Source: a virus. From it: a DNA stretch of 64,000 nt. The position numbers and the translations under genes are program-made. Location of the stretch: positions 1 to 64,000 of the IMG/VR virus record IMGVR_UViG_3300021479_000013; one strand, given 5' to 3'. Shown here one piece after another: positions 4,274-27,001 of the stretch. The stretch's first letter is position 1. The number at the start of each line of letters is the position of its first letter. Under the pieces are notes generated by a model. That model saw nothing but the letters and a program-made list of their open reading frames with translations, did not search any database and was not told where the DNA came from.

Positions 4274-4743
4274 GAATTAATCCGTTTCACCCACCCAGTA
4301 ACAAATACGCTCGACTCCGGTCGGTTGTTGATAATGCTCATGCAGTGGTTAATCAGAACGGTGCGATACGCGGGGAGGAGGTTAGCGTTCTGGTTCACCG
4401 CCGAAAGGGTGCTGGGACCAAACTGGCCGTCGGTAATAAGGCTGACCTTATTGACCAACGTGATCTGCAGAAGTTTCACGGCAGTTGCGACGCCGAAGAG
4501 CACGCCAGAATCGAATAATTTTTCTGCTATCGGTTGGTCAGTGATTTGGGAATAAAGTGGCTTCCAGTAATTTTCAGAATAATAGGCCACAGCTTGTTCA
4601 GAGGTGATAGTCCTCATATCGACACCAGGCATATCGGCTTGTGTGATACCGAAATTTGTTGCGCCTCCTGGGTCGTGAATATTATCGACGAAGCCGCCCT
4701 CGTGAATTAGCGTTTTTTCCACAGCTTGCTGAAAGTTTGCCAA
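4270..4743 (-). CDS. Glycoside hydrolase family 108 lysozyme (endolysin-like) with PG-binding region
   Basis: HEGGFVD-x3-DPGGATNFGITQ, DGQFGPST and GWVKR motifs; TTG start after GAGGAG. Confidence 0.9.
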   Translation of the reverse strand: MANFQQAVEKTLIHEGGFVDNIHDPGGATNFGITQADMPGVDMRTITSEQAVAYYSENYWKPLYSQITDQPIAEKLFDSGVLFGVATAVKLLQITLVNKVSLITDGQFGPSTLSAVNQNANLLPAYRTVLINHCMSIINNRPESSVFVTGWVKRINS

Positions 4744-5519
4744 AGTGATCTCCTCTCGATTTTGAATTCGGAAGTCGTACGGCCCTTCCAGTTGGTGCCC
4801 ATACCGGCGTCTTCCGACTCCAGATGGTAGCATACAATCTCAGGAACAAATCCGCGCTTGCCGCGAGGCCAGAGCTTGGAGAACAGCATATCGGTTCGGC
4901 CCGCGTCGCCGTGCGCCTTCGGGTAATGGTAAACGCTGCTGACCCAAGGGTGCCACAGCTGAAAGAATCCTATCGGTACCCAGCCGGTGTCGTGCGCCAT
5001 AACGCGCGTGGCGACGTCGAAGTCGTGGTTGTTAAGGTGGATATAAGCCTCGCACTCGTGCTGCAGCTTCGGTGAACGGAGGAACTCGCCCCACGCGCCC
5101 GCTCCCTTAACGTTGAAACGGTCTGCTCCGTAGATCATCGACTTATCGAGGCACGCGCGCTCCAAAAGTCGGCGGGTCTGAGGAGGCAGCCAGATGTCCG
5201 CGTCCAGGTGAAGGACCCACCCGTCTAGTTCCAGATGCTGGAGTCCTTGGTCGATAGCGTCGCCCTTGAACATCCCGGGGTCGCTCAGTTCCGGACATAC
5301 CACGCAGTGCACGTGGTAGAACTCGCACAGCTTCCGAGTCTTACGGTCTTCCTTGCTGGTCACCACGACCAGCTTGTCGAACATCTGCTTATTGTGGGGC
5401 AGCGTGTAAGCGAGAAAGTCCGAGTACTCCCTGCAGACGATAACGCACTCCAGCTTGAAACGGTCTTCTCTCTTCTCTTCCGCGCACTCTTGCTCGTGAT
5501 ACATCCAGCCCCCTAACAT
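4707..5519 (-). CDS. Glycosyltransferase (GT-A fold, GT2-like)
   Basis: WVLHLDADI DxD motif; GFFQLW; promoter TTGACA-17-TATGGT at about 5544-5572. Confidence 0.75.
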   Translation of the reverse strand: MLGGWMYHEQECAEEKREDRFKLECVIVCREYSDFLAYTLPHNKQMFDKLVVVTSKEDRKTRKLCEFYHVHCVVCPELSDPGMFKGDAIDQGLQHLELDGWVLHLDADIWLPPQTRRLLERACLDKSMIYGADRFNVKGAGAWGEFLRSPKLQHECEAYIHLNNHDFDVATRVMAHDTGWVPIGFFQLWHPWVSSVYHYPKAHGDAGRTDMLFSKLWPRGKRGFVPEIVCYHLESEDAGMGTNWKGRTTSEFKIERRSLWQTFSKLWKKR

Positions 5520-5568: not shown

Positions 5569-6510
5569 TCAAGACTTAAGTTCCGCGTCGACCATCAGCC
5601 GGACCAGTTCCTCAAATTTTACCTGCGGGGTCCATCGTAGTACACGCCTGGCCTTGCTTGCGTCCCCGATTAAAATGTTGACCTCGGTCGGACGGAATAA
5701 TCTCTCGTCTATCTCGACGTGCTTCGTCCAGTCGAGGTTGAGATACCCGAACGCGGCGTCAAGAAAATCTCGAACAGAGCGTGCCTCGCCTGTTGCGATC
5801 ACGTAGTCGTCCGGGACTGGCTGCTGCAGCATCAGATACATAGCCTCCACATAATCTTTGGCATATCCCCAATCCCTCTTAGCGTCCAGATTGCCTAAGA
5901 ACAGCTTGTCTTGGAGGCCTCGGGAGATACGAACGGCAGCCTTCGTTATCTTTCTCGTAACGAAAGTTTCGCCGCGCCTAGGTGACTCGTGATTAAACAG
6001 GATGCCGTTGCACGCGAACGTACCGTAAGCCTCCCGGTGGTTCACCGCAGACCAGTACGCGAACAGCTTGGCGATAGCGTAAGGCGAGCGGGGGTGGAAC
6101 GGAGTGTTTTCGTTAGTGGCTGCGGTATAAATTCCGCCGTACAGTTCAGAACTGCTGGCTTGGTAAAACTTGATGCCCTTTTCCTTGATAGCTTCCAAGA
6201 TGATAAGGGCCGCGATTCCTGTAGCCTCGGCGGTAACGACGGGGATGTCGAAGCTGGTGCGAACCTGGCTCTGCGCGGCCAGGTGGTAAATTTCATCTGG
6301 ACCGATTGTCTCGATTATGTTCGTGGTCGAGCTGGCGTCGGTGACGTCGCCGTAGTGCAGCTGCAGGTCATTAAAGATGTGATCTATTCGGCTGGTGTTG
6401 ATCGATGAGGAGCGGCGGACAATCCCGTGAACCTCGTAGCCTTTTTGGAGAAGTAGCTCCGCGAGGTATGAGCCGTCTTGTCCGGAAATTCCAGTGATGA
6501 GAGCCTTCAT
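5569..6510 (-). CDS. gmd: GDP-mannose 4,6-dehydratase
   Basis: [66 protein letters not shown]. Confidence 0.97.
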
Positions 6511-7313
6511 ATTGTTCCCTCCAGGTTGAGTTTTTCAATCAGCCACTTCGTTTTCAGTGTGTGGTACTCGGGCGAGCGATGATTCCAGTTCGACGCGCGT
6601 AGGTAGTGAATCCCGATAGGCTTGTCGTCTATAGAGATATTCTCGTACTCGGACGGATGAAAGTCGGTCGTCGGGTCGTCTGGGACGAAGTATTGCTGGA
6701 TAAGAGTCGGATTCAGTTCCGGGTGCGATTTCAGGTAGAAGAAGCTTTGCCCGCCGATGTCCGTGACTATTCCGTTCACGAAGCTGCCCCACCAGTTGAT
6801 TTGTTCAGGATTTGGAAGTCTAGACATATCGGCCAAGACCAGCGCGTCGTGCATGTGAATCCCACCCAGGTTCGGGCGAGACTGCGGCATAAAGCATAGC
6901 GGCGTCGTTACCAGGTAGTCTGTCAACTTGATAGGCCGGGTGAAGAACATGTCTGGGTGCAGGAGGCAGACGGCCCCCTTCTCTTTCATAATGTGGAACT
7001 CCCACGTATAAAAGCACCCGTAGCAGCCCGCGCAGTTGGGATTGCTCCAAGAGCCCTGGCGGTTGAATACCGTGCAAGACTTCTCGACCGCGTTGCACTT
7101 GTCTTCCAAAGACTGGACCCGCTCGACGTCGAAGACCGAGATTCCCAGCTTCCCGCACATCTCGTCGATCTTGACCTTCTCCGCTGGACGGTCAAACTTG
7201 GCGTTGTTTAATATCGTGAACGTGAAGTCCTCTTGGATGTACTTCTGGAAAGACTTCAGCTGCAGTTCGATCAAGTCCGACCGGTTGCTCGTGAACGCGA
7301 ATATGTTAATCAT
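6507..7313 (-). CDS. Putative glycosyltransferase (GT-A-like)
   Basis: CLLHPDMF at the DxD-like position; TDIGG; lies in the sugar cluster. Confidence 0.5.
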
Positions 7314-8242
7314 CTGCTCTCCTGGGCCAGCTTGGCTGCGGATAGTAGGCTGTCAATTTTGTTTAAGTAGGTATGCTTTTGGGCGACATCGTCCATCAGC
7401 GCGTGGAGCGTTTCCGACGCGATGCTAGCCAGATGATCTCGCGCGTCAAAAAAGAGTTCGTACGGGTCCGAGTTATAAATCAACCTGCCTCGGAAAGTTT
7501 GGTTAGCACAGAGATTGTTCGTCGCGCACATCTGGCCGTAGGACAAGGCCTTGAAGACCCGGCACGGCAGGTAGCCTACCGTGTTCTGATAAGCTAAGGA
7601 GATTGCTGGCGCGATGTATGAGTCTTGTACCAGCCTAACGTTCTCTTCGATAGATACAGGGGAGCCGCCGAAGCCCCCGATCAGATTGAAGTTGATTCCG
7701 CTCTCTTTGCACGCGGCAGCGAACGGAGCTTGCTCCGGTACCGATGTTCCCACGTAGTTGACGTCCCGGCTCCAGTCTCGGAAGACCTTACTCGGCTTGT
7801 TCGCCATGATCTCGTGAGGCAGAAGGTCTGTGGCCCAACGGAAGACTACAGCATCATACGAGTCCCAGGGCTGAGGGAAGAAGAACGTATCCCTGCTCAG
7901 CTCGATTGCGTTTGAGGGAATATCCATGCTGTCGACGTATAGCCCGTAGTTGATGGTTAAAAAGCCCTTCGTGTACTCCTTAGCGCGGGCTTCCATATTG
8001 TGGACCGCATAGAAGCAGTCCGAGCGGAGGGGCATACCTTTAATCGCGTACTCCATGCTGATGAAGAACGTGTTCGAGAAATCTACCCGGAAGGTGTCGT
8101 CGTGCGCGTCCAGCCAGCTGACCTGGCGCTCCGGGAATCGGGACTTTAGCGCGCGGTAAAAGGCCTCCAGAATGTGACGGAAGGAGTTGTACTGCCCGCT
8201 TTTAAATCCCCAAACGCAGAAGTTGCAGGTCTTTAAGTTCAT
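7310..8242 (-). CDS. Putative glycosyltransferase (GT-B C-terminal, CgeB-like)
   Basis: YLPCRVFKALSYG and QKHTYLNKI motifs. Confidence 0.6.
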   Translation of the reverse strand: MNLKTCNFCVWGFKSGQYNSFRHILEAFYRALKSRFPERQVSWLDAHDDTFRVDFSNTFFISMEYAIKGMPLRSDCFYAVHNMEARAKEYTKGFLTINYGLYVDSMDIPSNAIELSRDTFFFPQPWDSYDAVVFRWATDLLPHEIMANKPSKVFRDWSRDVNYVGTSVPEQAPFAAACKESGINFNLIGGFGGSPVSIEENVRLVQDSYIAPAISLAYQNTVGYLPCRVFKALSYGQMCATNNLCANQTFRGRLIYNSDPYELFFDARDHLASIASETLHALMDDVAQKHTYLNKIDSLLSAAKLAQESR

Positions 8243-9420
8243 TTGTACCCCAGAAAGTATCCGTGGATAAGTTCGCCTACGTAGTAGATGTCTTCGGCGG
8301 TTAAATTTTGATGAATGCCGATCATAAAACCGCTGCGGGCCAAATTTTGGGAGACAGGATACTGTTCCATCATCCGGGGGAAAAGTTTCCTATATGCAGG
8401 ACTTTCCAGGAGCGGAAACATGTGGCGTGTTTCTACTCCGTGCTCTTCTAAATACATGAGCAGCTTCTCCCTGTCTACGTAGGGCTTGCAGATAATCGGG
8501 AACATCATCCATGAGTGAGTCATGTCATACGGGACGTAGGGAAGTTGAATCTCGTCTATAGAAGAAAGAAGGCTCATCAGCCTGGTTGCGTTATCTCGGC
8601 GTGCTGCCGCGTTTTGCTCAAACCGCTCCAGTTCCGATAAAGCCAGTGCGGCTTCCAGTTCCGTTGCCCGGTAAGAGTATCCGACCCGGTCAAACTTAAA
8701 CCTTCTCTCGACGACGTTTTGAAGTCCAGAGCCTGTAAGACCGTTGGCCGCGTCGATGCTCGAATACACCGAGTCCCGACCGTGTGCCATCAGCGAGCGG
8801 CAGAGTTCGGCCAGCTTGTCGTCGTTCGTCGTGACCAGACCGCCCACGCCGCCGACTACCAGGTGGTTGACGTAAGTGCTGAAGCAGCCCATATCTCCGA
8901 AGCTGCCTACAGGCTTTCCGTCGACCGTGGAGCCGACCGCTTCGCAGCTGTCTTCGATGACTTGCAAGCAGTGCCTCTTAGCGATATACATGATCTCGGT
9001 CATATCAGCGCCCAATCCGAAGAGATGGACAGGAATAATGGCGCGAGTCTTGGCTGTGATCTTGTCTTCGATCTTCCTGTACTCCATATTGTAGGTTCTA
9101 GGATTGACGTCGACGAAGACAGGTACCATGTTATTTTGCAGGACGATGTTACTGGTTGCAATGAAGGTGGTCGAAGGGACAATCACTTCGTCCCCGTCTT
9201 TGTATCCGTGGGTTTCGCGGAGAGCGGCTAGCGCGACTTGGAGTGCGCTCGTTCCGCTGTTCATGAAGACGCCGTGCTTGCAGCCGTGCATACTGGCGAA
9301 CTTCTCTTCGAACTCTCGTGTGTACTTGCCGTATGAGAGTCGGTTCGAGTCGAGGCAGTCGTTAACGTACCGCTTGCCTTGGTCTGAGATTGAAAGTGTT
9401 CCGAGCGTAATTTTTCTCAT
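8239..9420 (-). CDS. DegT/DnrJ/EryC1/StrS family PLP/PMP enzyme, His-type (ColD/E1 3-dehydrase-like)
   Basis: NSGTSAL, IEDSCEA; STYVNHLVVGGVGG has His at the usual Schiff-base Lys position. Confidence 0.85.
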   Translation of the reverse strand: MRKITLGTLSISDQGKRYVNDCLDSNRLSYGKYTREFEEKFASMHGCKHGVFMNSGTSALQVALAALRETHGYKDGDEVIVPSTTFIATSNIVLQNNMVPVFVDVNPRTYNMEYRKIEDKITAKTRAIIPVHLFGLGADMTEIMYIAKRHCLQVIEDSCEAVGSTVDGKPVGSFGDMGCFSTYVNHLVVGGVGGLVTTNDDKLAELCRSLMAHGRDSVYSSIDAANGLTGSGLQNVVERRFKFDRVGYSYRATELEAALALSELERFEQNAAARRDNATRLMSLLSSIDEIQLPYVPYDMTHSWMMFPIICKPYVDREKLLMYLEEHGVETRHMFPLLESPAYRKLFPRMMEQYPVSQNLARSGFMIGIHQNLTAEDIYYVGELIHGYFLGYK

Positions 9421-9427
9421 ATGTCCT

Positions 9428-9970
9428 TTAGAACCTTTTAACGGTTGGAGCCACCTGATCGCGTGGTGAAATAAATAACGTAGCAAGACCGTTCACAGGC
9501 CACGGTATTCCGATGCTGGGGTCTTCCCAAAAGATAGCCCTGTCTTCTGCTGGGTTGTGGTACGCGTCGCATTTGTACTGGACTTCAGTATTGTCTTCCA
9601 GTGCCAGGAATCCCCTAGCGAAGTCGGACGAGGCCCACACTTGAATCTGATTCTCTTCGGTAGCGATCACCGAGTGGAATTTTAGAAATGTCGGAGAGTC
9701 CCTGTCGAAGTCCACCGAGACCATGTAAGCCGAGCCCCTGGTCACCCGCATAAGCTTGCTCATAGCAGGAGAGGGCTGGTAGTGTAGCCCTCGAACGGTA
9801 TTCCTCACGGAGCGGGAGTGAAGCTCCCTAACAAACTTCGGCAGGCCCAAAGATTCCATCTCGTTTTCAAGAAAGGTAACGGAGACGAACCCGCGCTCGT
9901 CCTTATAGACAGGCGGCGTGATGACTTTCACCCGGCCATCGAAATAGGTATCCATGTGAAAGAGGCTCAT
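9428..9970 (-). CDS. rmlC: NDP-4-keto-6-deoxyhexose 3,5-epimerase (RmlC cupin family)
   Basis: DERGF, VRGLHYQ, FARGF, YKCD, WEDPSIGIPWP, ISPRD; the FAHGF His appears as Arg. Confidence 0.85.
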   Translation of the reverse strand: MSLFHMDTYFDGRVKVITPPVYKDERGFVSVTFLENEMESLGLPKFVRELHSRSVRNTVRGLHYQPSPAMSKLMRVTRGSAYMVSVDFDRDSPTFLKFHSVIATEENQIQVWASSDFARGFLALEDNTEVQYKCDAYHNPAEDRAIFWEDPSIGIPWPVNGLATLFISPRDQVAPTVKRF

Positions 9971-10947
9971 ACGCCACCTCGGTGCCAGTCGATTGTATTT
10001 TTTAATCCTTCTTCCAGGCCCACAAAATGCGTCTTCTTAAACTCTTTCATGACCCGCCAAACATCCATCACGACATTGCCCGAAGCGCCGGACAGTTGAT
10101 TCTGCCCTGGAGCAAGCTTGGAGTCTGACATATAAGCAATCTCGGAAGCGATAAAATCTATTGTGTAAGTGTTTGGAGAGCCGACGTTGTACACGGGCTG
10201 TGTGCCATGCAGTAGGATATTCCACATCATCTCGATGGCGTCTCGTATATAGCAGAACGTGCGGTACTCACTGCCTGAGAATTTCATCTGTATCAGGCCC
10301 TCTCTTAAAGACTGATCGATAAACGAACTGATCGCCCTGGAGTCGCCTCGCCGCGCACCAGGTCCGTATACGAGAGATAGTCTAGCAGACCGTGCGTCGA
10401 CTCCCGATTCACGGAACGCGTTTACGATTGCCTCCCCGCACATCTTACCTTGGATATATCCCGCTCTGCGGTGGTACGGGCTTGTGGTTCCGATCTGAGA
10501 TTCGTCGGCGGTGCTCAGTCCGCTGTAAACTTCGGAAGAGCTGGCGAAGAGAAACTTTCCTCCAGGTTTCAAAGTGCTTAAGAGCTTGGCCGTCATCGCG
10601 GTATTGATTCGAATCGTCTCAAGCTGATTGACGGTAAATTTCGAAGGCTGCGCGTACCCGGCTAGGTGTAAAACCACGTCGGCGGGCGCGAATGGCTCGT
10701 CTATTAAAACAATCCGTCCGTGGCGCGCGATCTCTTTGGTGTAGTCTTCTGGGTCTGAGTGACAGACTCCGAAGACCTTCATATCGTAGCCCATGTTATT
10801 CAAAATAGACAGGCACGTTAAGACGTGCGTCCCGATCAGACCTGTTGCGCCTGTCACCAGAACGGTTTTGCCTTTCAGCCAATCGAAGTCGACCCTCTTC
10901 AATACCTCGGTCGCGTCTGACCATATGATGTCTAGCCTATTTCTCAC
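9967..10947 (-). CDS. NAD-dependent sugar epimerase/dehydratase/reductase (extended SDR)
   Basis: VTGATGLIG, SSSEVY, YIQGK (YxxxK), RTFCYIRD. Confidence 0.9.
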   Translation of the reverse strand: MRNRLDIIWSDATEVLKRVDFDWLKGKTVLVTGATGLIGTHVLTCLSILNNMGYDMKVFGVCHSDPEDYTKEIARHGRIVLIDEPFAPADVVLHLAGYAQPSKFTVNQLETIRINTAMTAKLLSTLKPGGKFLFASSSEVYSGLSTADESQIGTTSPYHRRAGYIQGKMCGEAIVNAFRESGVDARSARLSLVYGPGARRGDSRAISSFIDQSLREGLIQMKFSGSEYRTFCYIRDAIEMMWNILLHGTQPVYNVGSPNTYTIDFIASEIAYMSDSKLAPGQNQLSGASGNVVMDVWRVMKEFKKTHFVGLEEGLKNTIDWHRGGV

Positions 10948-11476
10948 TATAGTAATCTCCAAACTCAACGCACATAGTAGCACATCCGTCCGTTCTTGTC
11001 AAGGCCTTTTCGTAGGCCGGGAAGACGTCTTCTGGTTCGTCTAGACGGATGACTTCGACGGTGGTAAGCATGAGTTTAAATGCATCTGTGTAATCGTTGA
11101 CGTGCTGGTGAGAAGGGTGCAGCGGGCGTTCGGAGCCGATACCGGTGCGTATGATGACCTTGGGCTGATAACCGCCCTGGCTCATCGCTGAGAGCTTATC
11201 TAGATGCCCCACAAGCTGGTTAACGGCCAGGAGGAGGAAATTCCATCTAGGAAAAATTGTTACGGGCACGAAACCACCCAGTGCCAGTCCAATAGACGCC
11301 CCCATTTGTAACTCTTCTGCGACGGGGAATTCCGTGAGTTTATCTTTAGATACGTTAACGAGGGTCCCAGACATCGCAGTTCCCGGGAACCCGACGGCTT
11401 GTCCCAGAAAAATCGTACGCGGGTCGGCAGCCAAATAAGCCATCGCTCTGGTTAGTTCTTGTTGGTATTTTCCCAT
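10937..11476 (-). CDS. TPP-dependent enzyme, E1-beta/transketolase pyrimidine-binding domain only
   Basis: FLGQAV, EFPVAEELQMG, NQLVGHLDK; no C-terminal domain. Confidence 0.85.
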   Translation of the reverse strand: MGKYQQELTRAMAYLAADPRTIFLGQAVGFPGTAMSGTLVNVSKDKLTEFPVAEELQMGASIGLALGGFVPVTIFPRWNFLLLAVNQLVGHLDKLSAMSQGGYQPKVIIRTGIGSERPLHPSHQHVNDYTDAFKLMLTTVEVIRLDEPEDVFPAYEKALTRTDGCATMCVEFGDYYSEK

Positions 11477-12105
11477 CAGAAGTTTACTCTTTTCCCTGCC
11501 CCAGCGTGGGGCCACTTCTCGGCTTTGTACCTGAAGTGCGTTACTTTGTCTGAGAATGTTGCCTTGTGTTCTGCATCTGTTGTAAACTCGTCACCGAATT
11601 CATTCTTCAATCCCCACGCCTTGCGAGTGTCTGTGCATACAGAAAGATTATTGTCCTCGACATGAAAAAATACGGGTAGGTCAAAATTTTCTACATACTT
11701 AATGCTTTCGTAAGCTATCCCAGTTTCAGATGTCATGTCGCCTAGAAAAATGTGTACGCTCTCATTACCAAATCTGCGTTTGATAGCCATACCAAGTCCT
11801 ACACCAATGGGTAAAACACCACCAATGATGGCACTAGATAAAATGCGATACTCAGGAAAGCTGAGAGCAATTGAGTATCCAGCCATAATCTTGGCTTTCA
11901 ACTCTGCCGGGGGTACACCTTTTAAAAGGCAGGGGTAATGGCTTCTCCACGAGCAGAGCACCCAATCTTGGGGGCTTATACCTTTGAAGATTTCGATTAG
12001 TTCCTTCTCCCCGCCGCTGTACAAATGGACCGGGGCCTTGATCTTCCCAGCGTTGAACTCGGCTGCGATATCATCTTCGAACGCGATTAATTCTTCCGCA
12101 ATCAT
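11476..12105 (-). CDS. TPP-dependent enzyme, truncated E1-alpha subunit
   Basis: HLYSGGE, WRSHY, SAIIGG, and GDM...EDNN TPP-binding motif. Confidence 0.88.
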   Translation of the reverse strand: MIAEELIAFEDDIAAEFNAGKIKAPVHLYSGGEKELIEIFKGISPQDWVLCSWRSHYPCLLKGVPPAELKAKIMAGYSIALSFPEYRILSSAIIGGVLPIGVGLGMAIKRRFGNESVHIFLGDMTSETGIAYESIKYVENFDLPVFFHVEDNNLSVCTDTRKAWGLKNEFGDEFTTDAEHKATFSDKVTHFRYKAEKWPHAGAGKRVNF

Positions 12106-12106
12106 A

Positions 12107-12901
12107 TTATCTCCAGAGGTCCGGGTGCAGCAGGTGAATCAGTCTTACCAGTCCGCTGTGGGCTTTCGTGGCCTGGGTTATCATAGAAACGGGCTTCACT
12201 CGGTAGTGGAACAAGGGCTCGTTTACCACCCCAACGGTCCAACCACGCTTCAAAATGTCCAGCCACATGTTCCAATCCTCGTAGCCCAAAATCTTTGTGC
12301 TGCCAGCGACGTCTATGAATATAGTCTCGTAGCCGGGGGTCTGCTCAAATGCCGTCCTACGAATCAAAGAGCATACGGGAAGGTCATTGCTGACCATCTC
12401 GCTCGCTAGGGACAGCCCCTTCGGCGGGATGCGGTTGTGCAGCAGTCCCTCGTACTGCATATCCGTCGACACAATTCCGATGCCCTGGTTAACCATCAAC
12501 GGGACGGTGCGTTCCAGATAGTTGGGCTCGATCCAGTCGTCCGAGTCGAGAGGCAGGATAAACTCGCCGTCGCCTGCTCGTATGCCTTCGTTCCTAGATG
12601 TTGAAAGTCCTCGGTTCTCCCGGTCAATAATCTTCAACCTTCCGTTAAAGTTCCAGCACCCAGGGACAGGCTCCATCATCTCGGCTTCCGCGTAACGCTT
12701 GACCATCAGCTCCCGCATCTCTCTGTTCCATCGGTCGACCATCTCGCGCACGACCACCATAGAGTGGTCCGTGGAGCCGTCGTTGACCACGGTTATGTCG
12801 AAGTCCGGGTAAGTCTGCGCCATCGCAGAATTTAAGCACTGCTCGATAAACTCTTCCTGATTGAAGAGCGGTATTACGATATTCACTTTTCCGACTTTCA
12901 T
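12107..12901 (-). CDS. Glycosyltransferase family 2
   Basis: VIPLFNQE, VNDGSTD, NRGLSTSRN, LDSDD, EDWNMW. Confidence 0.92.
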   Translation of the reverse strand: MKVGKVNIVIPLFNQEEFIEQCLNSAMAQTYPDFDITVVNDGSTDHSMVVVREMVDRWNREMRELMVKRYAEAEMMEPVPGCWNFNGRLKIIDRENRGLSTSRNEGIRAGDGEFILPLDSDDWIEPNYLERTVPLMVNQGIGIVSTDMQYEGLLHNRIPPKGLSLASEMVSNDLPVCSLIRRTAFEQTPGYETIFIDVAGSTKILGYEDWNMWLDILKRGWTVGVVNEPLFHYRVKPVSMITQATKAHSGLVRLIHLLHPDLWR

Positions 12902-13617
12902 ATTCTCACCCACGCCTCTGGTACGATTCCCGAGCTATCCAACTCTTGCGTTACAAACCACTGCTTCGGAGCGACAACCAACTTCTGCGGTCCCAGATAA
13001 GCTCCCCACCAGCTATAGCTGCTGTTGGCAATCACGTGGTATTCGCACCTGGACATTGTGTTTAAATCCTCGTACTTGTTGTCGCCTTCCGCGATCTCGA
13101 AGTCCGGGAAGTTTTGCTTGCACCAATTTCGATCATCTGAGAATACCAGAACAGGCACAAGAGAGCCCACCTCTCTACGGATGTGCGCGATTGCCAGGCG
13201 GTAATAATCAAGTCCAGGCATCCCGTGAAAGTGCTCCAGTCCCACGTAGTCTTGGCGACGGACATGGGCCGCGATATAAGTCAACCTAGAGCTTACCGGG
13301 AACTTGAAGGCCTCTCGAATCTTGTATGAGATTCCTTCTAGATATTTGGGAGATTGCCAATAACCGACCAGAGTAGAAGGGTCTTCGGGGGATAGATAAG
13401 TAGGATTATAGGTTAGGCCGTTTTCGTAGACTTCTTTACCTACAGACTTTCCCTCGGCTTTAATTCCGAAGTATCCAAGAGAAAACTCCCGGTGTGTTCC
13501 TTCTATCAGATAAGACCTATCCAGTTGGACCTGATATCCTCTGTGCTGCAAGGACATAGCGAACGCCGACTGCCAGAGCTGATTTCCGAGGCCTCCAAGT
13601 AGTCGTACCGTAATCAT
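12898..13617 (-). CDS. Alpha-1,2-fucosyltransferase family (GT11)
   Basis: GGLGNQLW, GYWQS, HVRRQDY, FSDD, NSSYSWWGAYL. Confidence 0.93.
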   Translation of the reverse strand: MITVRLLGGLGNQLWQSAFAMSLQHRGYQVQLDRSYLIEGTHREFSLGYFGIKAEGKSVGKEVYENGLTYNPTYLSPEDPSTLVGYWQSPKYLEGISYKIREAFKFPVSSRLTYIAAHVRRQDYVGLEHFHGMPGLDYYRLAIAHIRREVGSLVPVLVFSDDRNWCKQNFPDFEIAEGDNKYEDLNTMSRCEYHVIANSSYSWWGAYLGPQKLVVAPKQWFVTQELDSSGIVPEAWVRI

Positions 13618-14309
13618 CGCTTCCCCTTGTCTAGTGCCAGAATCTTCGGCGTGACGTTCAGCCCCGCAGCCTTCCACTTGTTGGTATAATATTCGGATGC
13701 GTTTTCGGGGTAGCAGTAAGAGGGGTCAAGAACCGTACAAGGCGGGTGCTCGTGAAGATAGCGATTCAAGTGCGACTCGTCGTGCCATACTGCGAGCACG
13801 CCGCAAGATTCGTCCACACTGATGTGATAGGCTAGATCGGTAGCCATTCTCAAAAATGTCGAAGTTGCGCCGCCGTTGAATCCTCCACAAAAGTATTTAT
13901 TTACAGAGCCCGGGGTAATAGAGGCCGCTGAGTGTATTCTTCGTTCCGGAGTCCCGCAAGAGCCAACATAGCCTGGGTGTAGGGTGGCGGTTATGCCGTT
14001 GGAGAAGATTTCTTCTCCGACTGGGGCGACGAAGCGCATGTCGGAGTCGATGTAAAAAACTTGGTCGTACTTTTTCAATTGCCAATCTTGCTGCAGAATT
14101 GTGTGGTACCTGTATAGAGTTTCTTTAGGGAAGCCGAGAGCTTCCTTGATTAGTACAAATTTCGCATCGAAGGTGCTGGCCGCTTCCAGAGTATCCGTCC
14201 ACACAATCGCATCGTGTTCAACGAAAAATTCTTGAGCAGACTCCAAAAGCTGGGGAACGAACGCATGGTACTTTTCTCCTGTGGCGATAATTAAAAGCGC
14301 GGTCTTCAC
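13614..14309 (-). CDS. GT6 family alpha-1,3-Gal/GalNAc transferase (ABO-like)
   Basis: IATGEKY, DSD, LHPGY, GGFNGG, AVWHDESHLNRY. Confidence 0.9.
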   Translation of the reverse strand: MKTALLIIATGEKYHAFVPQLLESAQEFFVEHDAIVWTDTLEAASTFDAKFVLIKEALGFPKETLYRYHTILQQDWQLKKYDQVFYIDSDMRFVAPVGEEIFSNGITATLHPGYVGSCGTPERRIHSAASITPGSVNKYFCGGFNGGATSTFLRMATDLAYHISVDESCGVLAVWHDESHLNRYLHEHPPCTVLDPSYCYPENASEYYTNKWKAAGLNVTPKILALDKGKR

Positions 14310-14995
14310 GAGTTCACCGTCTTGTTAACCAGGTGAGCCGTTTCCATCCACTTGTACTCAAGTTTGTAGCCCGACTTGTACTTCGAGGACGGGAAGTGCT
14401 GAGAGTAGCTGCCCGCTGGCAGGTCGAGAGCGATCATATCGCCCTTACGCAGTTCCTGTCCAAGGACGGACCCGACCCAGAGGTCTTCTGCCCAACCTTG
14501 TGGGAACGTGTCCGCTATCAGCGCGACCGCGTTCCGAGATAGAAAGTACCCGTACCCGCCTGACGCCCACGGGTGACATTCCTGGATGCTGGTGACCAGC
14601 CCTTCCCGGCTAACCGCGTCGTAAGGAAAGGTCTCGCCTATCGGGCGGCTGATCTTGCCGACGTAGTCGTACCGCTGGTAGCCACAGGTCAGAAGCCTGC
14701 TCACGTTCACGTACGTGTCGGTGTCGCACAGGAAAACGTTATCGATATTCTTCCCGTAAGCCCACTGGCATATCGCCCTGGTCTTGGAAGGCAGGGAGTT
14801 GTAATCGTCCGCCGTATCGACCGCGACCTCGTCAGACTTGTAAACTCGGCTAGTCCGTCCGTCTCGCTCCGCGCCGACGAAGAATTTCAGGTGCGCCTTG
14901 CCCTTAAGTTCCTGGCCCCAGGTCGCGCGAATCACATCGTGGAAGCCGCGATCTAAGTCGGCCTTACAGCTTTTCACCGCTACGAGTAAGCTCAT
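14306..14995 (-). CDS. GT31-like (beta-1,3-galactosyltransferase/fringe-like) glycosyltransferase
   Basis: DDYNSLPSKT, CDTDTYV, SGGYGYFLS, AEDLWVG. Confidence 0.8.
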   Translation of the reverse strand: MSLLVAVKSCKADLDRGFHDVIRATWGQELKGKAHLKFFVGAERDGRTSRVYKSDEVAVDTADDYNSLPSKTRAICQWAYGKNIDNVFLCDTDTYVNVSRLLTCGYQRYDYVGKISRPIGETFPYDAVSREGLVTSIQECHPWASGGYGYFLSRNAVALIADTFPQGWAEDLWVGSVLGQELRKGDMIALDLPAGSYSQHFPSSKYKSGYKLEYKWMETAHLVNKTVNS

Positions 14996-15735
14996 TTTAC
15001 CTCTTCGTCGAATCCGTAATATTTCTTGATACCACGCTTCTTCATCATCAGCGCGTGCCCTGTTGTGAGAGCACGGCGGCGGAATGCTTTATATCTCGGG
15101 TCCTGCTTGCTCGCATCGTACTCCATTTGATTGACGTTAACGTTCGGCAGAAACATGACAACCACACCAGCTTCCTTCAAGTCAAGAAAGAAATCCACGT
15201 GTTCGCCGCCAACAGGCCTGATTGCCTCATCCCAAGGAAACGCCCGCAGAACGTAAGTACGAGCGAGAAAATAGTTGGCCGCTATATCTACTCGGACTAA
15301 ACTGCCATGTTGCATCTCCACGCGGTGTTCCTTAATATACTCGCCTGGTACGTATTCAAGGGTCCCTTCGTAAGGCCTGTCGTTGACCCGACCGGCTACT
15401 ACATCGATCTCGTATCCTATGTTTATCTCTGACGCTCCCAGAGCCTTCCTCATCTTGATAATTCCTTCCCTCGCTTCATCGGTTGAGAAGTCGAAATCAT
15501 CGCTGCCTATCAGCGTGTACCGCGTTTGAACTTGCGCGACACCCGCGTTACGCTTTGCTGTCAATCCCGAATCATAGGGCAGGTAAATCTCGTTCGCCGT
15601 TTGAGGAATCACGCCGTCATCCGACACAACTACAACGTCGCACTCGGGTAGGTTCTCCCTAATGCCCGCGAGACAGTCAAACAGATAGCCTCTGCGGTGG
15701 AACGTTGGGATGACAATTGTAATATCACTAAGCAC
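14992..15735 (-). CDS. Glycosyltransferase family 2
   Basis: IVIPTFHR, SDDG, GLTAKRN, SDDFDF, GEHVDFF. Confidence 0.85.
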   Translation of the reverse strand: MLSDITIVIPTFHRRGYLFDCLAGIRENLPECDVVVVSDDGVIPQTANEIYLPYDSGLTAKRNAGVAQVQTRYTLIGSDDFDFSTDEAREGIIKMRKALGASEINIGYEIDVVAGRVNDRPYEGTLEYVPGEYIKEHRVEMQHGSLVRVDIAANYFLARTYVLRAFPWDEAIRPVGGEHVDFFLDLKEAGVVVMFLPNVNVNQMEYDASKQDPRYKAFRRRALTTGHALMMKKRGIKKYYGFDEEVK

Positions 15736-24662: not shown

Positions 24663-25808
24663 TCATTTGTGGTAATAGGGGTCGGAATAGCCATCTGCAC
24701 CCAGAAGAAGGCCATCTGCCCAAGATATTGGTTGACTCATTATAGAAATCATGGTCTCCACTGCCGGGCTTAGAATATCATTCTCAACTACACATATCTG
24801 CTCATCGTGGACATGACCTATCGTGCTACCCGGCTCAAGGGCCTCTATCTCGATTAATTTGCAGGCCAAAATATCTCTGGCGATTCCCTGGACCAAGTTC
24901 TCGAATAGTTTTCCGCCGTGTGTGCTTATGTGGGGGTGCCACTTCTTTGTCTTCTGATTCGTCCCCCCGTAGATTAGAGAGTCGCGATACACGTCAATCT
25001 CGTTACCGTCGTCGTCCTGAGTTTTCCACGGCATCAGCGTCGGCTCTAGTCTGGCGTCTAGATAGTGGAGCATCCGTCCGCTAGGAAGCCTCATACGCAT
25101 CATTGGCTCTCGTTCTTTATTGCCTTGTGCGTCTATGAAGTTCACGCGGTCGATTACGACGCACCCGTTCGGGCCTATCTTACGAATTGTGGCCGGGTGG
25201 TCTGGATGCATCACATCCGCTACCGCTAGCTCTAGCATCTTCCAGATACCATTTTTGGGGTCGCATATTTCTGGATAAGAGTTACGGAAGACATCGCTGG
25301 CTTCGCCTGCCTGCTCTTGGGACATCTCTACGTTCATCGCATCCCCGTATCCCCACAAACCGGTCTTGATGCGGTCGCGAATCTCTTCGCAGTGACAGTA
25401 CTTCTTACCGACCTTCTTTACCTTGCCGTTCTGCTGAGTGTAAGTGTCCTTTGCGTTGCAATCGTCCCCGTGGTTTTTGTATGAGTCTGGGGACTTTCCC
25501 CATCCGCCGCCTGCCATTCTATAAATAGAGGCCAGCACAGGAACCTTCGCAATTTGACGCCTACGCTTAGCTATGCCTTGGCGCTCTTTGCCGTTCTTGC
25601 CTTTATAGTCCGCGTAAATATTGTCGTATTCTAGGCCCCATATCTTGCATGAGAACGAGAGATACGGGCATCGTCCAACCGGATGATATTCTCCAAACTG
25701 ATCTGTGTACGGTTCGAAGACTTTCATCAGGTCTACGCAGTTTGCTAGCCATGCTCCGACCCTGGTTTCGATGGCATTTAGGTCTACCACTTGAAGGCGC
25801 TGGCTCAT
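24663..25808 (-). CDS. Family A DNA polymerase, C-terminal part (palm/fingers)
   Basis: Motif A DLNAIETR, motif B RQIAK...Y, HGGKLFENLVQGIARD, motif C HVHDE. Confidence 0.92.
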   Translation of the reverse strand: MSQRLQVVDLNAIETRVGAWLANCVDLMKVFEPYTDQFGEYHPVGRCPYLSFSCKIWGLEYDNIYADYKGKNGKERQGIAKRRRQIAKVPVLASIYRMAGGGWGKSPDSYKNHGDDCNAKDTYTQQNGKVKKVGKKYCHCEEIRDRIKTGLWGYGDAMNVEMSQEQAGEASDVFRNSYPEICDPKNGIWKMLELAVADVMHPDHPATIRKIGPNGCVVIDRVNFIDAQGNKEREPMMRMRLPSGRMLHYLDARLEPTLMPWKTQDDDGNEIDVYRDSLIYGGTNQKTKKWHPHISTHGGKLFENLVQGIARDILACKLIEIEALEPGSTIGHVHDEQICVVENDILSPAVETMISIMSQPISWADGLLLGADGYSDPYYHK

Positions 25809-27001
25809 ATAGAGAACACCGTTCGAATCAGAGATTTTATCGTAAGCAAAACGCTTCCATACTTCGACTTGATTCCCTCGTAATCTTCCGCGTAAATCAT
25901 CGCACGAGCCTCTTTCACGGTGCTCTGATCTTCGAAGTCGAACCCGTTTAATTTATCTGGAGGCAGCGGCCTGGCCATATTTTGAAGCTGAACCGAGCTA
26001 CCGCTCCAACGACCACAGCGACTAGCTCCCATAAATATAAACTGACCGCGCAATCTTCCGTCAGGCGATACGCACTCGATAATCTTGCCCAGCTTCTGAT
26101 AGCTAGTGCTGGCTGCCTCTGCGCGCATCTTCAAAGCCGTCCTGCAAGCGTCGGTCAGCTTGATGTCTGGGTCCTTCAAGACCGATGTGACTGTGTCCTT
26201 ACGCAAGGTGCCGTAAGGGTAGCCTTGGGTCTTGGCCCACTTCTTGACATGGTCCGGTGAGTTGGCGTTCAATACGCCTGTCATCTTCTCGAAGTTTAGC
26301 TTGGCCTCTTCCTTCGCGCGGACGGCCAGCTTGTACATCTTGCGTACGAATTCTACGTCGACGGGCATCCCTCTGTCGTTAATTTTCTGGTCCAGTATCC
26401 ACAGCTTCTGCTCAAACTCTGGCAGCGGGAGGGCCTTCAAGATTCGTATCCGACGGAGTAGCTCGCCTTCAGCGACAACGTCTTGCCTGCCGTAAGCGAG
26501 GAATTCTTCCCACTCCTTCGGGTGTGAATTCCAGTCGTTGTAATATTCCTTCGCGGGATTTTTCTTGGTGGCCTTGGTGATGACCTTGTCGCAGAACAGC
26601 TTAATCAGCGCGTCGCCGCGCGGGTCCTTAGATAGGTGCGGGGGGACTCCCAGGACTTCGCACTGCACGTCCAAGCTGGCGGGTAGAGACAGATAACGCC
26701 CGCCGACCTGGGGGTCGATGAACCGGCTGGCGGGGATGTCGTATCCCAGCTTTTTAAGACCGTACCTCTCGAACGCGGAATTGAATGCCACTAAATACAC
26801 GTCCGGATGATTGATAGCTTGCCATAGTTCGTTGTGAATTTGCTCGCCTTCCCAGATGCGCCAGCATTTATATTCGCCGCTTCCGATCTTGAACCACAGG
26901 AATAAAAGCTCCGTGTCCGGGTGAAAGATGTAATTGTGTAGCCCTCGGTCACTGGGACCGAAGGTGCTGCGGCTCTCGAAGTCGATGTGAAGTTCGATCA
27001 C
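25805..27001 (-). CDS. Family A DNA polymerase, N-terminal part (3'-5' exonuclease, thumb)
   Basis: ExoI DFESRS, ExoII AFNSAFER, ExoIII YGRQDV, INDRG, GRWSG..VQLQNMAR, LIRTVF. Confidence 0.92.
   Translation of the reverse strand: MIELHIDFESRSTFGPSDRGLHNYIFHPDTELLFLWFKIGSGEYKCWRIWEGEQIHNELWQAINHPDVYLVAFNSAFERYGLKKLGYDIPASRFIDPQVGGRYLSLPASLDVQCEVLGVPPHLSKDPRGDALIKLFCDKVITKATKKNPAKEYYNDWNSHPKEWEEFLAYGRQDVVAEGELLRRIRILKALPLPEFEQKLWILDQKINDRGMPVDVEFVRKMYKLAVRAKEEAKLNFEKMTGVLNANSPDHVKKWAKTQGYPYGTLRKDTVTSVLKDPDIKLTDACRTALKMRAEAASTSYQKLGKIIECVSPDGRLRGQFIFMGASRCGRWSGSSVQLQNMARPLPPDKLNGFDFEDQSTVKEARAMIYAEDYEGIKSKYGSVLLTIKSLIRTVFSI

Follow-up and report, generated by a model that had tools for sequence, protein, structure and literature searches.

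A probable phage operon for a GDP-linked 3,6-dideoxy sugar carries a miniature E1 pair that may add a carbon branch

In the antibiotic pathways of actinomycetes, keto-sugars receive a pyruvate-derived C2 unit from thiamine diphosphate (ThDP) enzymes of the E1 type, as described in passages of PMC12247030, PMC4425429 and PMC10338323. Enzymes of this alpha-KADH2 type include AviB1/AviB2 and Pau11/Pau12, treated in a section of PMC4425429, and KbDH-alpha/beta, which couples pyruvate to ketones in vitro; the aldgamycin enzymes were demonstrated by feeding and knockout (both in parts of the review PMC12247030). The same parts of the review assign E1-type branching to secondary metabolites and YerE-type branching to lipopolysaccharide, and the yersiniose route outlined in a portion of PMC9306805 runs through YerE, an acetolactate-synthase-type enzyme. 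A further relevant system is the GDP-L-colitose pathway of Escherichia coli O55/O111 and relatives, which uses Gmd, ColD and ColC. According to the portions of PMC8987622 on these enzymes, what chiefly distinguishes 3-dehydratases from aminotransferases is a Lys-to-His substitution, the characterized His-type members (the dehydratase E1, ColD and SpnQ) are all 3-dehydratases, and ColD works without an iron-sulfur (Fe-S) cluster and has its pyridoxamine phosphate (PMP) cofactor recharged with glutamate. Here we describe a phage operon whose product is very probably a colitose-like 3,6-dideoxy sugar made from host GDP-mannose, and which also encodes a miniature E1-alpha/E1-beta pair. It lies in what we call the window, the initial 64 kb of a virus record of 82,399 bases (IMGVR_UViG_3300021479_000013) that is estimated to be 81% complete.

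Phage hallmarks in the window comprise a large terminase, a portal protein, DNA polymerase, primase, exonucleases and a GH108 endolysin (Pfam and PHROG profile matches). Five coupled genes occupy 8239-12105 on the minus strand and encode mini E1-alpha, mini E1-beta, a short-chain dehydrogenase/reductase (SDR), an RmlC-like epimerase and a DegT-family protein. Gmd is encoded just downstream of this set. The six genes, with starts and open reading frame (ORF) limits, are:

11476..12105, minus strand: mini E1-alpha (ThDP PP-domain subunit), 209 amino acids; PF00676
10937..11476, minus strand: mini E1-beta (PYR-domain subunit), 179 amino acids, with its ATG overlapping the E1-alpha stop; PF02779
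9967..10947, minus strand: extended SDR ("SDR338"), about 326 amino acids from a GTG at 10947, ORF open to 10983; PF01370
9428..9970, minus strand: RmlC-like cupin 3,5-epimerase, 180 amino acids; PF00908
8239..9420, minus strand: His-type DegT-family protein, 393 amino acids from an ATG at 9420, ORF open to 9486; PF01041
5569..6510, minus strand: Gmd, GDP-mannose 4,6-dehydratase, 313 amino acids; TIGR01472, PF16363

From E1-alpha to Gmd the genes meet in start/stop overlaps of 1-4 bases, except for one 11-base overlap and one 8-base gap. With no junction looser than this 8-base gap, these genes form one translationally coupled unit. A preliminary description of this DNA, made from the letters alone, had the two E1 genes as adjacent. 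They are indeed coupled to each other; the pair is not directly next to the DegT gene, from which it is separated by the SDR (9967-10947, open to 10983) and RmlC-like (9428-9970) genes.

The DegT-family protein has histidine where related aminotransferases have lysine. The motif given in the preliminary description is real (...GCFSTYVNHLVVGGVGGLVTT... in the minus-strand ORF at 8239-9486), and the protein is a full-length member of the DegT/DnrJ/EryC1 family (PF01041, 333.7 bits). The ORF tool chose a TTG start that gives 415 amino acids; the ATG at 9420, which follows AAAGGA, gives 393, the length of an identical database protein (P0124). The comparison with perosamine synthase, ColD and the dehydratase E1 that had been proposed as a check places the histidine at the catalytic-lysine position: in a phmmer alignment with Caulobacter GDP-perosamine synthase it is opposite the lysine of 3DR7 and 3BN1 and the alanine of 3DR4, and it shares a MAFFT column with the histidine of 45 ColD-like proteins. 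All 121 DegT sequences, the query and its 120 best homologues at 61% identity or more, keep it within the motif FSTYV[AN]H..VGG[VI]GG. Only one cysteine, C159, is invariant in an alignment of 15 DegT sequences, which fits an Fe-S-free enzyme of the ColD type. The four-Cys [2Fe-2S] motif of the dehydratase E1 and SpnQ is absent, and no reductase-like gene that would be a dedicated partner was found among the cluster's Pfam matches.

The nearest solved relatives of the window protein are the Lys-type perosamine synthase (211.7 bits), the dehydratase E1 (177.9 bits) and ColD (153.5 bits). Since the Lys-type enzyme ranks ahead of the other two, the protein is, judged by its sequence, a separate His-type lineage apart from ColD. 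It scored 245.5 bits against the NCBIfam RfbH equivalog NF011936, below the cut-off of 423, and there was no ColD-specific model among the 25 best of its 26 NCBIfam matches. Gmd passed the equivalog model TIGR01472 (480.3 bits, cut-off 415) and matched PF16363 at 426.8 bits. The ColD-like dehydratase suggested in the preliminary description is supported by the histidine at the lysine site, the lack of the four-Cys motif and a true Gmd nearby. We conclude that the DegT-family protein is probably a ColD-like, Fe-S-free GDP-4-keto-6-deoxy-D-mannose 3-dehydratase.

Both E1 subunits are small and well conserved at the positions expected of a ThDP enzyme. The match of E1-alpha to PF00676 (50.3 bits) covers positions 7-172 of the 300 in the profile, and the protein stayed far below the cut-off of TIGR03182 (68.6 bits, cut-off 393.85). 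Its best relative in the PDB is the alpha subunit of human pyruvate dehydrogenase E1 (E=8.5e-6). The pair also fell short of a second curated E1 model, NF006667 (35.4 bits, cut-off 321). It has the ThDP motif GDM...EDNN, in which G122, E150, D151 and N152 are invariant in the family alignment and D123 is present in at least 90% of it, and the family's C-terminal motif K-[YW]-P-H-A-G-[AS]-G-x-R-[VI]-x-F is conserved. E1-beta matched only PF02779 (Transket_pyr, 29.2 bits) and has no C-terminal transketolase domain (Transketolase_C). Its start was called at a GTG that gives 192 amino acids; the ATG at 11476, which overlaps the E1-alpha stop (TGATG), gives 179, and the median length of 45 family sequences is 181. 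At least 95% of these 45 have the motifs PV.EE.QMG, with its glutamate, and RPLHP.HQH. In the best PDB match, 1um9_B (E=8e-9), the sequence PLSEA aligns with PVAEE of the window protein. Thus, the ThDP-binding motif of alpha and the activating PYR-domain glutamate of beta are both present, and the pair lacks the beta C-terminal domain and the alpha C-terminal third of full-length E1 subunits.

The E2 catalytic (PF00198), lipoyl (PF00364) and E3 dimerization (PF02852) domains were all missing from the 82,399-base, 81%-complete record; in positive controls the same search detected these domains in 10-14 of 14 reference genomes. This agrees with the preliminary description, which had noted stripped-down subunits of 209 and 179 amino acids, the latter without C-domain, and no E2 or E3. 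The pair does not have the YerE architecture of a single chain with TPP_enzyme N, M and C domains, and consists of E1_dh and Transket_pyr on two small proteins. Like AviB1/AviB2-type enzymes, it is encoded in a keto-sugar pathway without E2 or E3. These features support the prediction that it is a stand-alone ThDP enzyme. We set aside the idea that it acts as an E3 surrogate supplying electrons to the dehydratase, as the dehydratases have no conserved Fe-S motif.

The remaining two proteins of the set could complete a dideoxy-sugar pathway. The RmlC-like protein matched PF00908 at 162.9 bits, narrowly missed the equivalog TIGR01221 (150.8 bits, cut-off 155.75) and had dTDP-4-dehydrorhamnose 3,5-epimerases as its best PDB matches. 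The SDR (PF01370, 117.5 bits) was closest in the PDB to entries of the human UDP-glucuronate decarboxylase UXS1 (91.8-91.9 bits). It is probably the terminal ketoreductase. A proposed orthology with the SDRs of heptose/radical-SAM cassettes was rejected at only 20-21% identity.

Relatives of the mini-E1 are encoded in 258 bacterial genome stretches and 296 viral stretches, and the best 120 E1-alpha homologues are 190-243 amino acids long and 57-92% identical. We counted neighboring genes in the best 80 stretches of each group, limiting the counts to fully flanked loci (38 bacterial, each with at least 6 kb on both sides, and 49 phage). The best 80 bacterial stretches span Verrucomicrobiota, Planctomycetota, Burkholderiales and Nitrospira, among other groups. 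E1-beta accompanies E1-alpha at all 38 bacterial loci, and the other neighbors are a DegT homologue (37/38), an HddA-like GHMP kinase (36/38), an HddC-like nucleotidyltransferase (34/38) and a B12-radical-SAM protein (32/38). Lack of a second SDR would argue that branching uses up C4; the 38 loci are divided on this point, with one SDR gene or none at 22 and two or more at 16. At the phage loci E1-beta is present in 49/49, a B12-radical-SAM gene in 42/49 and a His-type DegT in 39/49, of which 36 are ColD-like and three window-like. The B12-binding radical-SAM gene at E1 loci (for example L004:6460-7992 and L022:5306-6862) is HpnJ-like by NCBIfam, with scores far under the cut-off. An L-2-hydroxyglutarate-oxidase equivalog (for example L077:3651-4895; 496.9 bits, cut-off 299) occurs at 13 of the 38 bacterial loci, perhaps a sign that the pathway consumes 2-oxoglutarate or forms it as a by-product.

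The 45 bacterial DegT neighbors called as ORFs all have the histidine (FSFYYAHH..EGG). Their best solved relative is ColD (2gms, 173.7 bits), and the histidine, as aligned in one of these proteins, falls opposite the asparagine or lysine of the variant ColD entries 3b8x, 2r0t and 3gr9; position 188 of 3B8X is a mutated H188, according to passages of PMC8987622. Two His-DegT lineages therefore partner the mini-E1, the window type nearest to perosamine synthase and the bacterial type nearest to ColD. The version in the window, with GDP-mannose entry, a perosamine-synthase-like dehydratase and no radical SAM protein, is a minority variant. Because the family almost always adjoins a His-type dehydratase, a role for the mini-E1 on the 4-keto-3-deoxy product fits.

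Sister phages show the pathway with and without the E1 pair. With the DegT protein as sole query, viral contigs yielded only three loci; an alignment-based viral scan gave 35. The window DegT subfamily (at least 44% identity) is found at 28 of the 35, always with the histidine, and merging near-identical copies left 20 distinct loci. At seven of these the DegT gene is beside an SDR 47-100% identical to a GDP-L-fucose-synthase (GFS)-like protein, and three more have weak (24-32%) matches to it. Four such SDRs scored 278-289 bits against NF047922, short of its equivalog cut-off of 500, which is what a ColC-like paralogue would be expected to give. Judged by gene content, the GFS-like SDR with His-DegT and Gmd follows the logic of the classical colitose triad Gmd/ColD/ColC. 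Seven other distinct loci have the SDR type of the window, six of them with an RmlC-like gene as well, and this SDR accompanies Gmd, His-DegT and RmlC in phages lacking the E1 pair, including one 100%-complete genome. In the sugar cassettes of sister phages, homing-endonuclease-like genes (NUMOD3, endonuclease VII, HNH-AP2) are inserted beside the His-DegT gene at L095:8336-9004, L100:10179-10706 and L109:8532-8999.

The E1 pair occurs at four of the seven loci with the window SDR type and at none of the ten GFS-like loci (one-sided Fisher probability about 0.015, computed by hand and ignoring shared ancestry). The difference appears as a clean two-gene insertion: locus L103 reads Gmd-E1a-E1b-SDR-RmlC-DegT, and L096 and L120 read Gmd-SDR-RmlC-DegT. 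In a phage with an E1-alpha 78% identical (L003:7057-9171), Gmd is followed by E1-alpha and E1-beta at the contig end, in the same order as in L103. We infer that a bifunctional ColC-like enzyme keeps the epimerized 4-keto intermediate and that a split epimerase and reductase would release it, so that this substrate would be open to interception by a ThDP enzyme.

These data lead us to the following scheme. Gmd, whose family is assigned by sequence, would convert host GDP-mannose to GDP-4-keto-6-deoxy-mannose. The His-type DegT protein, as its Lys-to-His signature and context suggest, would act as a ColD-like PMP enzyme that takes off the 3-hydroxyl to give GDP-4-keto-3,6-dideoxy-mannose, with glutamate recharging the cofactor. 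The RmlC-like cupin may then epimerize beside the keto group, probably at C5. By analogy with the known branching enzymes, the mini-E1 heteromer would decarboxylate pyruvate on ThDP, and attack of the resulting hydroxyethyl carbanion on the ketone at C4 would produce a tertiary alcohol with a 4-C-acetyl group. The SDR could reduce the unbranched 4-ketone to a colitose-like sugar, the side-chain ketone to a yersiniose-like sugar, or both, and the operon may yield two donor sugars, one colitose-like and one branched. Finally, the GT2, GT11, GT6 and GT31-like glycosyltransferases encoded nearby would build the glycan. Because the mini-E1 pairs near-obligately with enzymes making the 4-keto-3-deoxy ketone, that ketone is the most economical acceptor.

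Our confidence differs between the parts of this scheme. It is likely that a 3,6-dideoxy sugar derived from GDP-mannose is made, and fairly probable that the E1 pair acts on a keto-sugar of that pathway. That its reaction is a C2 branch at C4, a proposal by analogy, is possible but somewhat doubtful, and for the explanation as a whole, a phage GDP-sugar operon with C2 branching by a mini-E1, we regard the case as almost evenly balanced. The pathway in the preliminary description, a 3,6-dideoxy sugar from GDP-mannose taken either to colitose or to a C4-branched sugar, stands with respect to a His-type, ColD-like dehydratase after a true Gmd, a stand-alone ThDP pair and a family linked to His-type dehydratases, and leaves colitose-like and branched products both possible. 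More speculatively, the mini-E1 may be a widespread, undescribed class of ThDP enzymes that C-acylate nucleotide sugars, serving here as a plug-in cassette that diverts a colitose-type 4-keto intermediate to a branched GDP-sugar. Such diversion would explain why the pair is restricted to loci that have an epimerase and a reductase as separate proteins in place of the bifunctional ColC-like enzyme.

Compared with the colitose pathway, the window shares a true Gmd and a DegT enzyme with His for Lys that is apparently free of Fe-S, and sister phages add a GDP-fucose-synthase/ColC-like gene, with GT11-like transferases near. It differs in that the dehydratase is of a separate subfamily (FSTYVxH..VGGVGG) closer to perosamine synthase than to ColD, ColC is replaced by an RmlC-like epimerase and an unrelated SDR, a ThDP enzyme is inserted, and the whole set is phage-encoded. 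The yersiniose A pathway (E1/DdhC, YerE, YerF) follows the same logic of 4,6-dehydration, PMP-dependent 3-deoxygenation, ThDP-dependent C2 addition to the 4-ketone and reduction. However, YerE is a flavoprotein of the acetolactate-synthase type, made of a single chain, and its substrate is a CDP-sugar, whereas the window ThDP enzyme is of the E1/transketolase type with a GDP-linked sugar, and the yersiniose dehydratase needs an Fe-S cluster and a reductase, whereas that of the window is ColD-like. AviB1/AviB2, Pau11/Pau12 and KbDH-alpha/beta are alike in being two-subunit ThDP E1 enzymes without E2 or E3, in a deoxysugar cluster that makes a keto-sugar. In contrast to these actinomycete enzymes, the window pair has neither the beta C-terminal domain nor the alpha C-terminal third, and mini-E1 genes are found in phages and in Gram-negative or uncultured bacteria, with GDP- or heptose-type sugars and usually a B12-radical-SAM gene. 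By these likenesses, the operon would work as a hybrid of the colitose pathway and the branching logic of yersiniose or eurekanate. Searches of open-access PMC and bioRxiv yielded papers on YerE-type and full-size E1-type enzymes only, and none that treats a miniature E1 pair in a GDP-sugar or phage setting.

Several observations weigh against a branching role for the pair on this pathway's sugar. The pair is missing from 16 of the 20 distinct sister loci, and no E1-alpha was detected anywhere in the 109-kb, 100%-complete record of L120, which keeps Gmd, His-DegT, RmlC and SDR; as a control, the same query detected the gene in the window's own record. Because this complete genome keeps all four genes, the four-gene pathway is complete without the pair, which in this phage lineage is an optional two-gene add-on to a self-sufficient pathway. 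In such phages the SDR must reduce C4; if C4 were branched, this SDR type would have to act on something else. In addition, 10 of the 49 phage E1 loci have no DegT gene within about 9 kb, and at two further phage loci, L007 and L008, the pair is beside HldE-like and GmhA-like heptose genes with no DegT. Because E1 loci without DegT exist, a 3-deoxy acceptor is not obligatory. The B12-radical-SAM gene that is common at E1 loci is absent from the window, and the family's usual chemistry may involve this missing partner. The neighbor counts (37/38 and 39/49 for DegT) come from loci picked by E1-alpha similarity and not de-duplicated, and relatives share context by descent. Pau11/Pau12 are of full size, 325 and 345 amino acids according to a section of PMC4425429, against 209 and 179 in the window, a comparison of sizes. 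The same literature searches gave no biochemical datum for any member of the mini-E1 family.

One rival explanation is that the only special sugar is an unbranched, colitose-like 3,6-dideoxyhexose made by Gmd, His-DegT, RmlC-like protein and SDR, and that the E1 pair has a role outside sugar C-branching, for instance the synthesis of a small acyloin or aldehyde, or a reaction on a substrate that is not a nucleotide. In sister phages the four-gene set stands alone, in one case in a complete genome, and GT11-like genes are present at 14 of the 20 distinct loci. GT11 includes some colitosyl- and fucosyltransferases. However, the pair is translationally coupled within the sugar operon, its family lies in nucleotide-sugar clusters at 37/38 bacterial and at least 39/49 phage loci, and both subunits are strongly conserved, which makes this explanation unlikely. 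It is rather less likely still that the pair branches or extends the keto-sugar with another donor, such as 2-oxoglutarate or hydroxypyruvate, or at another position, next to C4. ColD-type turnover makes 2-oxoglutarate from glutamate (mechanistic passages of PMC8987622), the 13 bacterial loci with an L-2-hydroxyglutarate-oxidase equivalog point in the same direction, and known E1-type enzymes branch at C3 or C4 (enzyme descriptions in PMC12247030). On the other hand, the same descriptions present E1-type (alpha-KADH2) branching enzymes as apparently specialized for pyruvate C2 units, and no LhgO-like gene was among the Pfam matches of the window.

The likeness of the SDR to human UXS1 (91.8-91.9 bits) raises the further idea that this protein supplies a UDP-4-keto-pentose that the E1 pair acetylates in a eurekanate-type reaction, apart from the GDP-mannose branch. 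The aligned SDR has an SSSEVYS stretch and a YxxxK motif, which we take to resemble UXS motifs, and EvdS6 and an E1-like pair are proposed to work in this way in a part of PMC10338323. This is very unlikely, however, as this SDR type is always flanked by Gmd or the E1 pair on one side and by the RmlC and His-DegT genes on the other, is also present in phages without the pair, occurs at only 2 of 80 bacterial E1 loci (best 80 of 258) and has no UDP-glucose dehydrogenase beside it among the cluster's Pfam matches. Least probable of all is that the DegT protein is no dehydratase and is instead aminotransferase-like or an inactive relative of perosamine synthase. Its closest solved relative is indeed the Lys-type GDP-perosamine synthase at 211.7 bits, and Asn precedes its His as Asn precedes the Lys in that enzyme; but the His is fixed in 121/121 homologues, all characterized His-type members (E1, ColD, SpnQ) are 3-dehydratases in the accounts given in PMC8987622, and sister phages pair the DegT gene with Gmd and a ColC/GFS-like gene. 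We retain the reading in which a dideoxy sugar from GDP-mannose is made and its keto intermediate may be branched by the mini-E1.

The operon is part of a minus-strand glycan island that spans about 4.7 to 15.7 kb of the window, with about eight glycosyltransferase-like genes around the dideoxy-sugar set. In order of transcription the island encodes GT2-like, GT31-like, GT6-like, GT11-like and GT2 proteins, E1-alpha, E1-beta, SDR, RmlC-like and DegT-family proteins, two proteins of no recognized family, Gmd, a GT2_4-like protein and the endolysin. Its genes outside the six listed above are:

12107..15735, minus strand: five upstream glycosyltransferase genes, GT2, GT11-like, GT6-like, GT31-like and GT2-like; PF00535, PF01531, PF03414, PF01762 and weak PF00535
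6507..8242, minus strand: two coupled genes of unknown family, 268 and 310 amino acids, between Gmd and the DegT gene, with ATGA overlaps on both sides
4707..5519, minus strand: GT2_4-like gene that follows Gmd; PF13704, under the cut-off of 27.5 with 23.2 bits
4270-4833, minus strand: GH108 endolysin after the GT2_4-like gene; PF05838, phrog_315

In the row at 12107-15735 the GT11-like protein is of the fucosyl/colitosyl type and the GT6-like protein of the blood-group A/B type; the latter scored 150.1 bits against the NCBIfam "family 6 glucosyltransferase", under the cut-off of 250. The two genes at 6507..8242 had no Pfam, NCBIfam or PHROG match. They are possibly glycosyltransferases: among their language-model look-alikes, which are viral clusters and leads only, PF13524 is found in 20% of members and PF00535 in 13%, in each case a minority. 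No Wzx, Wzy or initiating transferase was found among the Pfam matches of 26 scanned ORFs. By DNA similarity, the cassette had no relatives among 50,697 deposited phage records, with only short Gmd matches of 60-80% identity. The listed endolysin ORF shares 127 bases (4707-4833, minus strand) with the end of the GT2_4-like gene, and its true start is probably farther downstream because the Pfam match begins only at residue 39. Elsewhere in the window, the DNA polymerase (24663-27001, minus strand) consists of two abutting ORFs of 381 and 398 amino acids that match consecutive parts of one PHROG polymerase profile, which may reflect a split gene, a frameshift or an intein/intron remnant.

The operon is a further case of phages with large, self-contained glycan-building islands, and phages that have the two-gene insert, set beside those that lack it, offer a natural comparison for assigning the E1 reaction. 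If the proposed pathway is true, C2-branched deoxysugars would be common in environmental bacteria and phages, beyond the few Yersinia-type O-antigens and actinomycete antibiotics. Their maker would be a minimal PP plus PYR ThDP enzyme of fewer than 400 residues in total, an attractive biocatalyst for tertiary alcohols, and phages and many uncultured bacteria would gain a family of carbon-branched 3-deoxy surface sugars.

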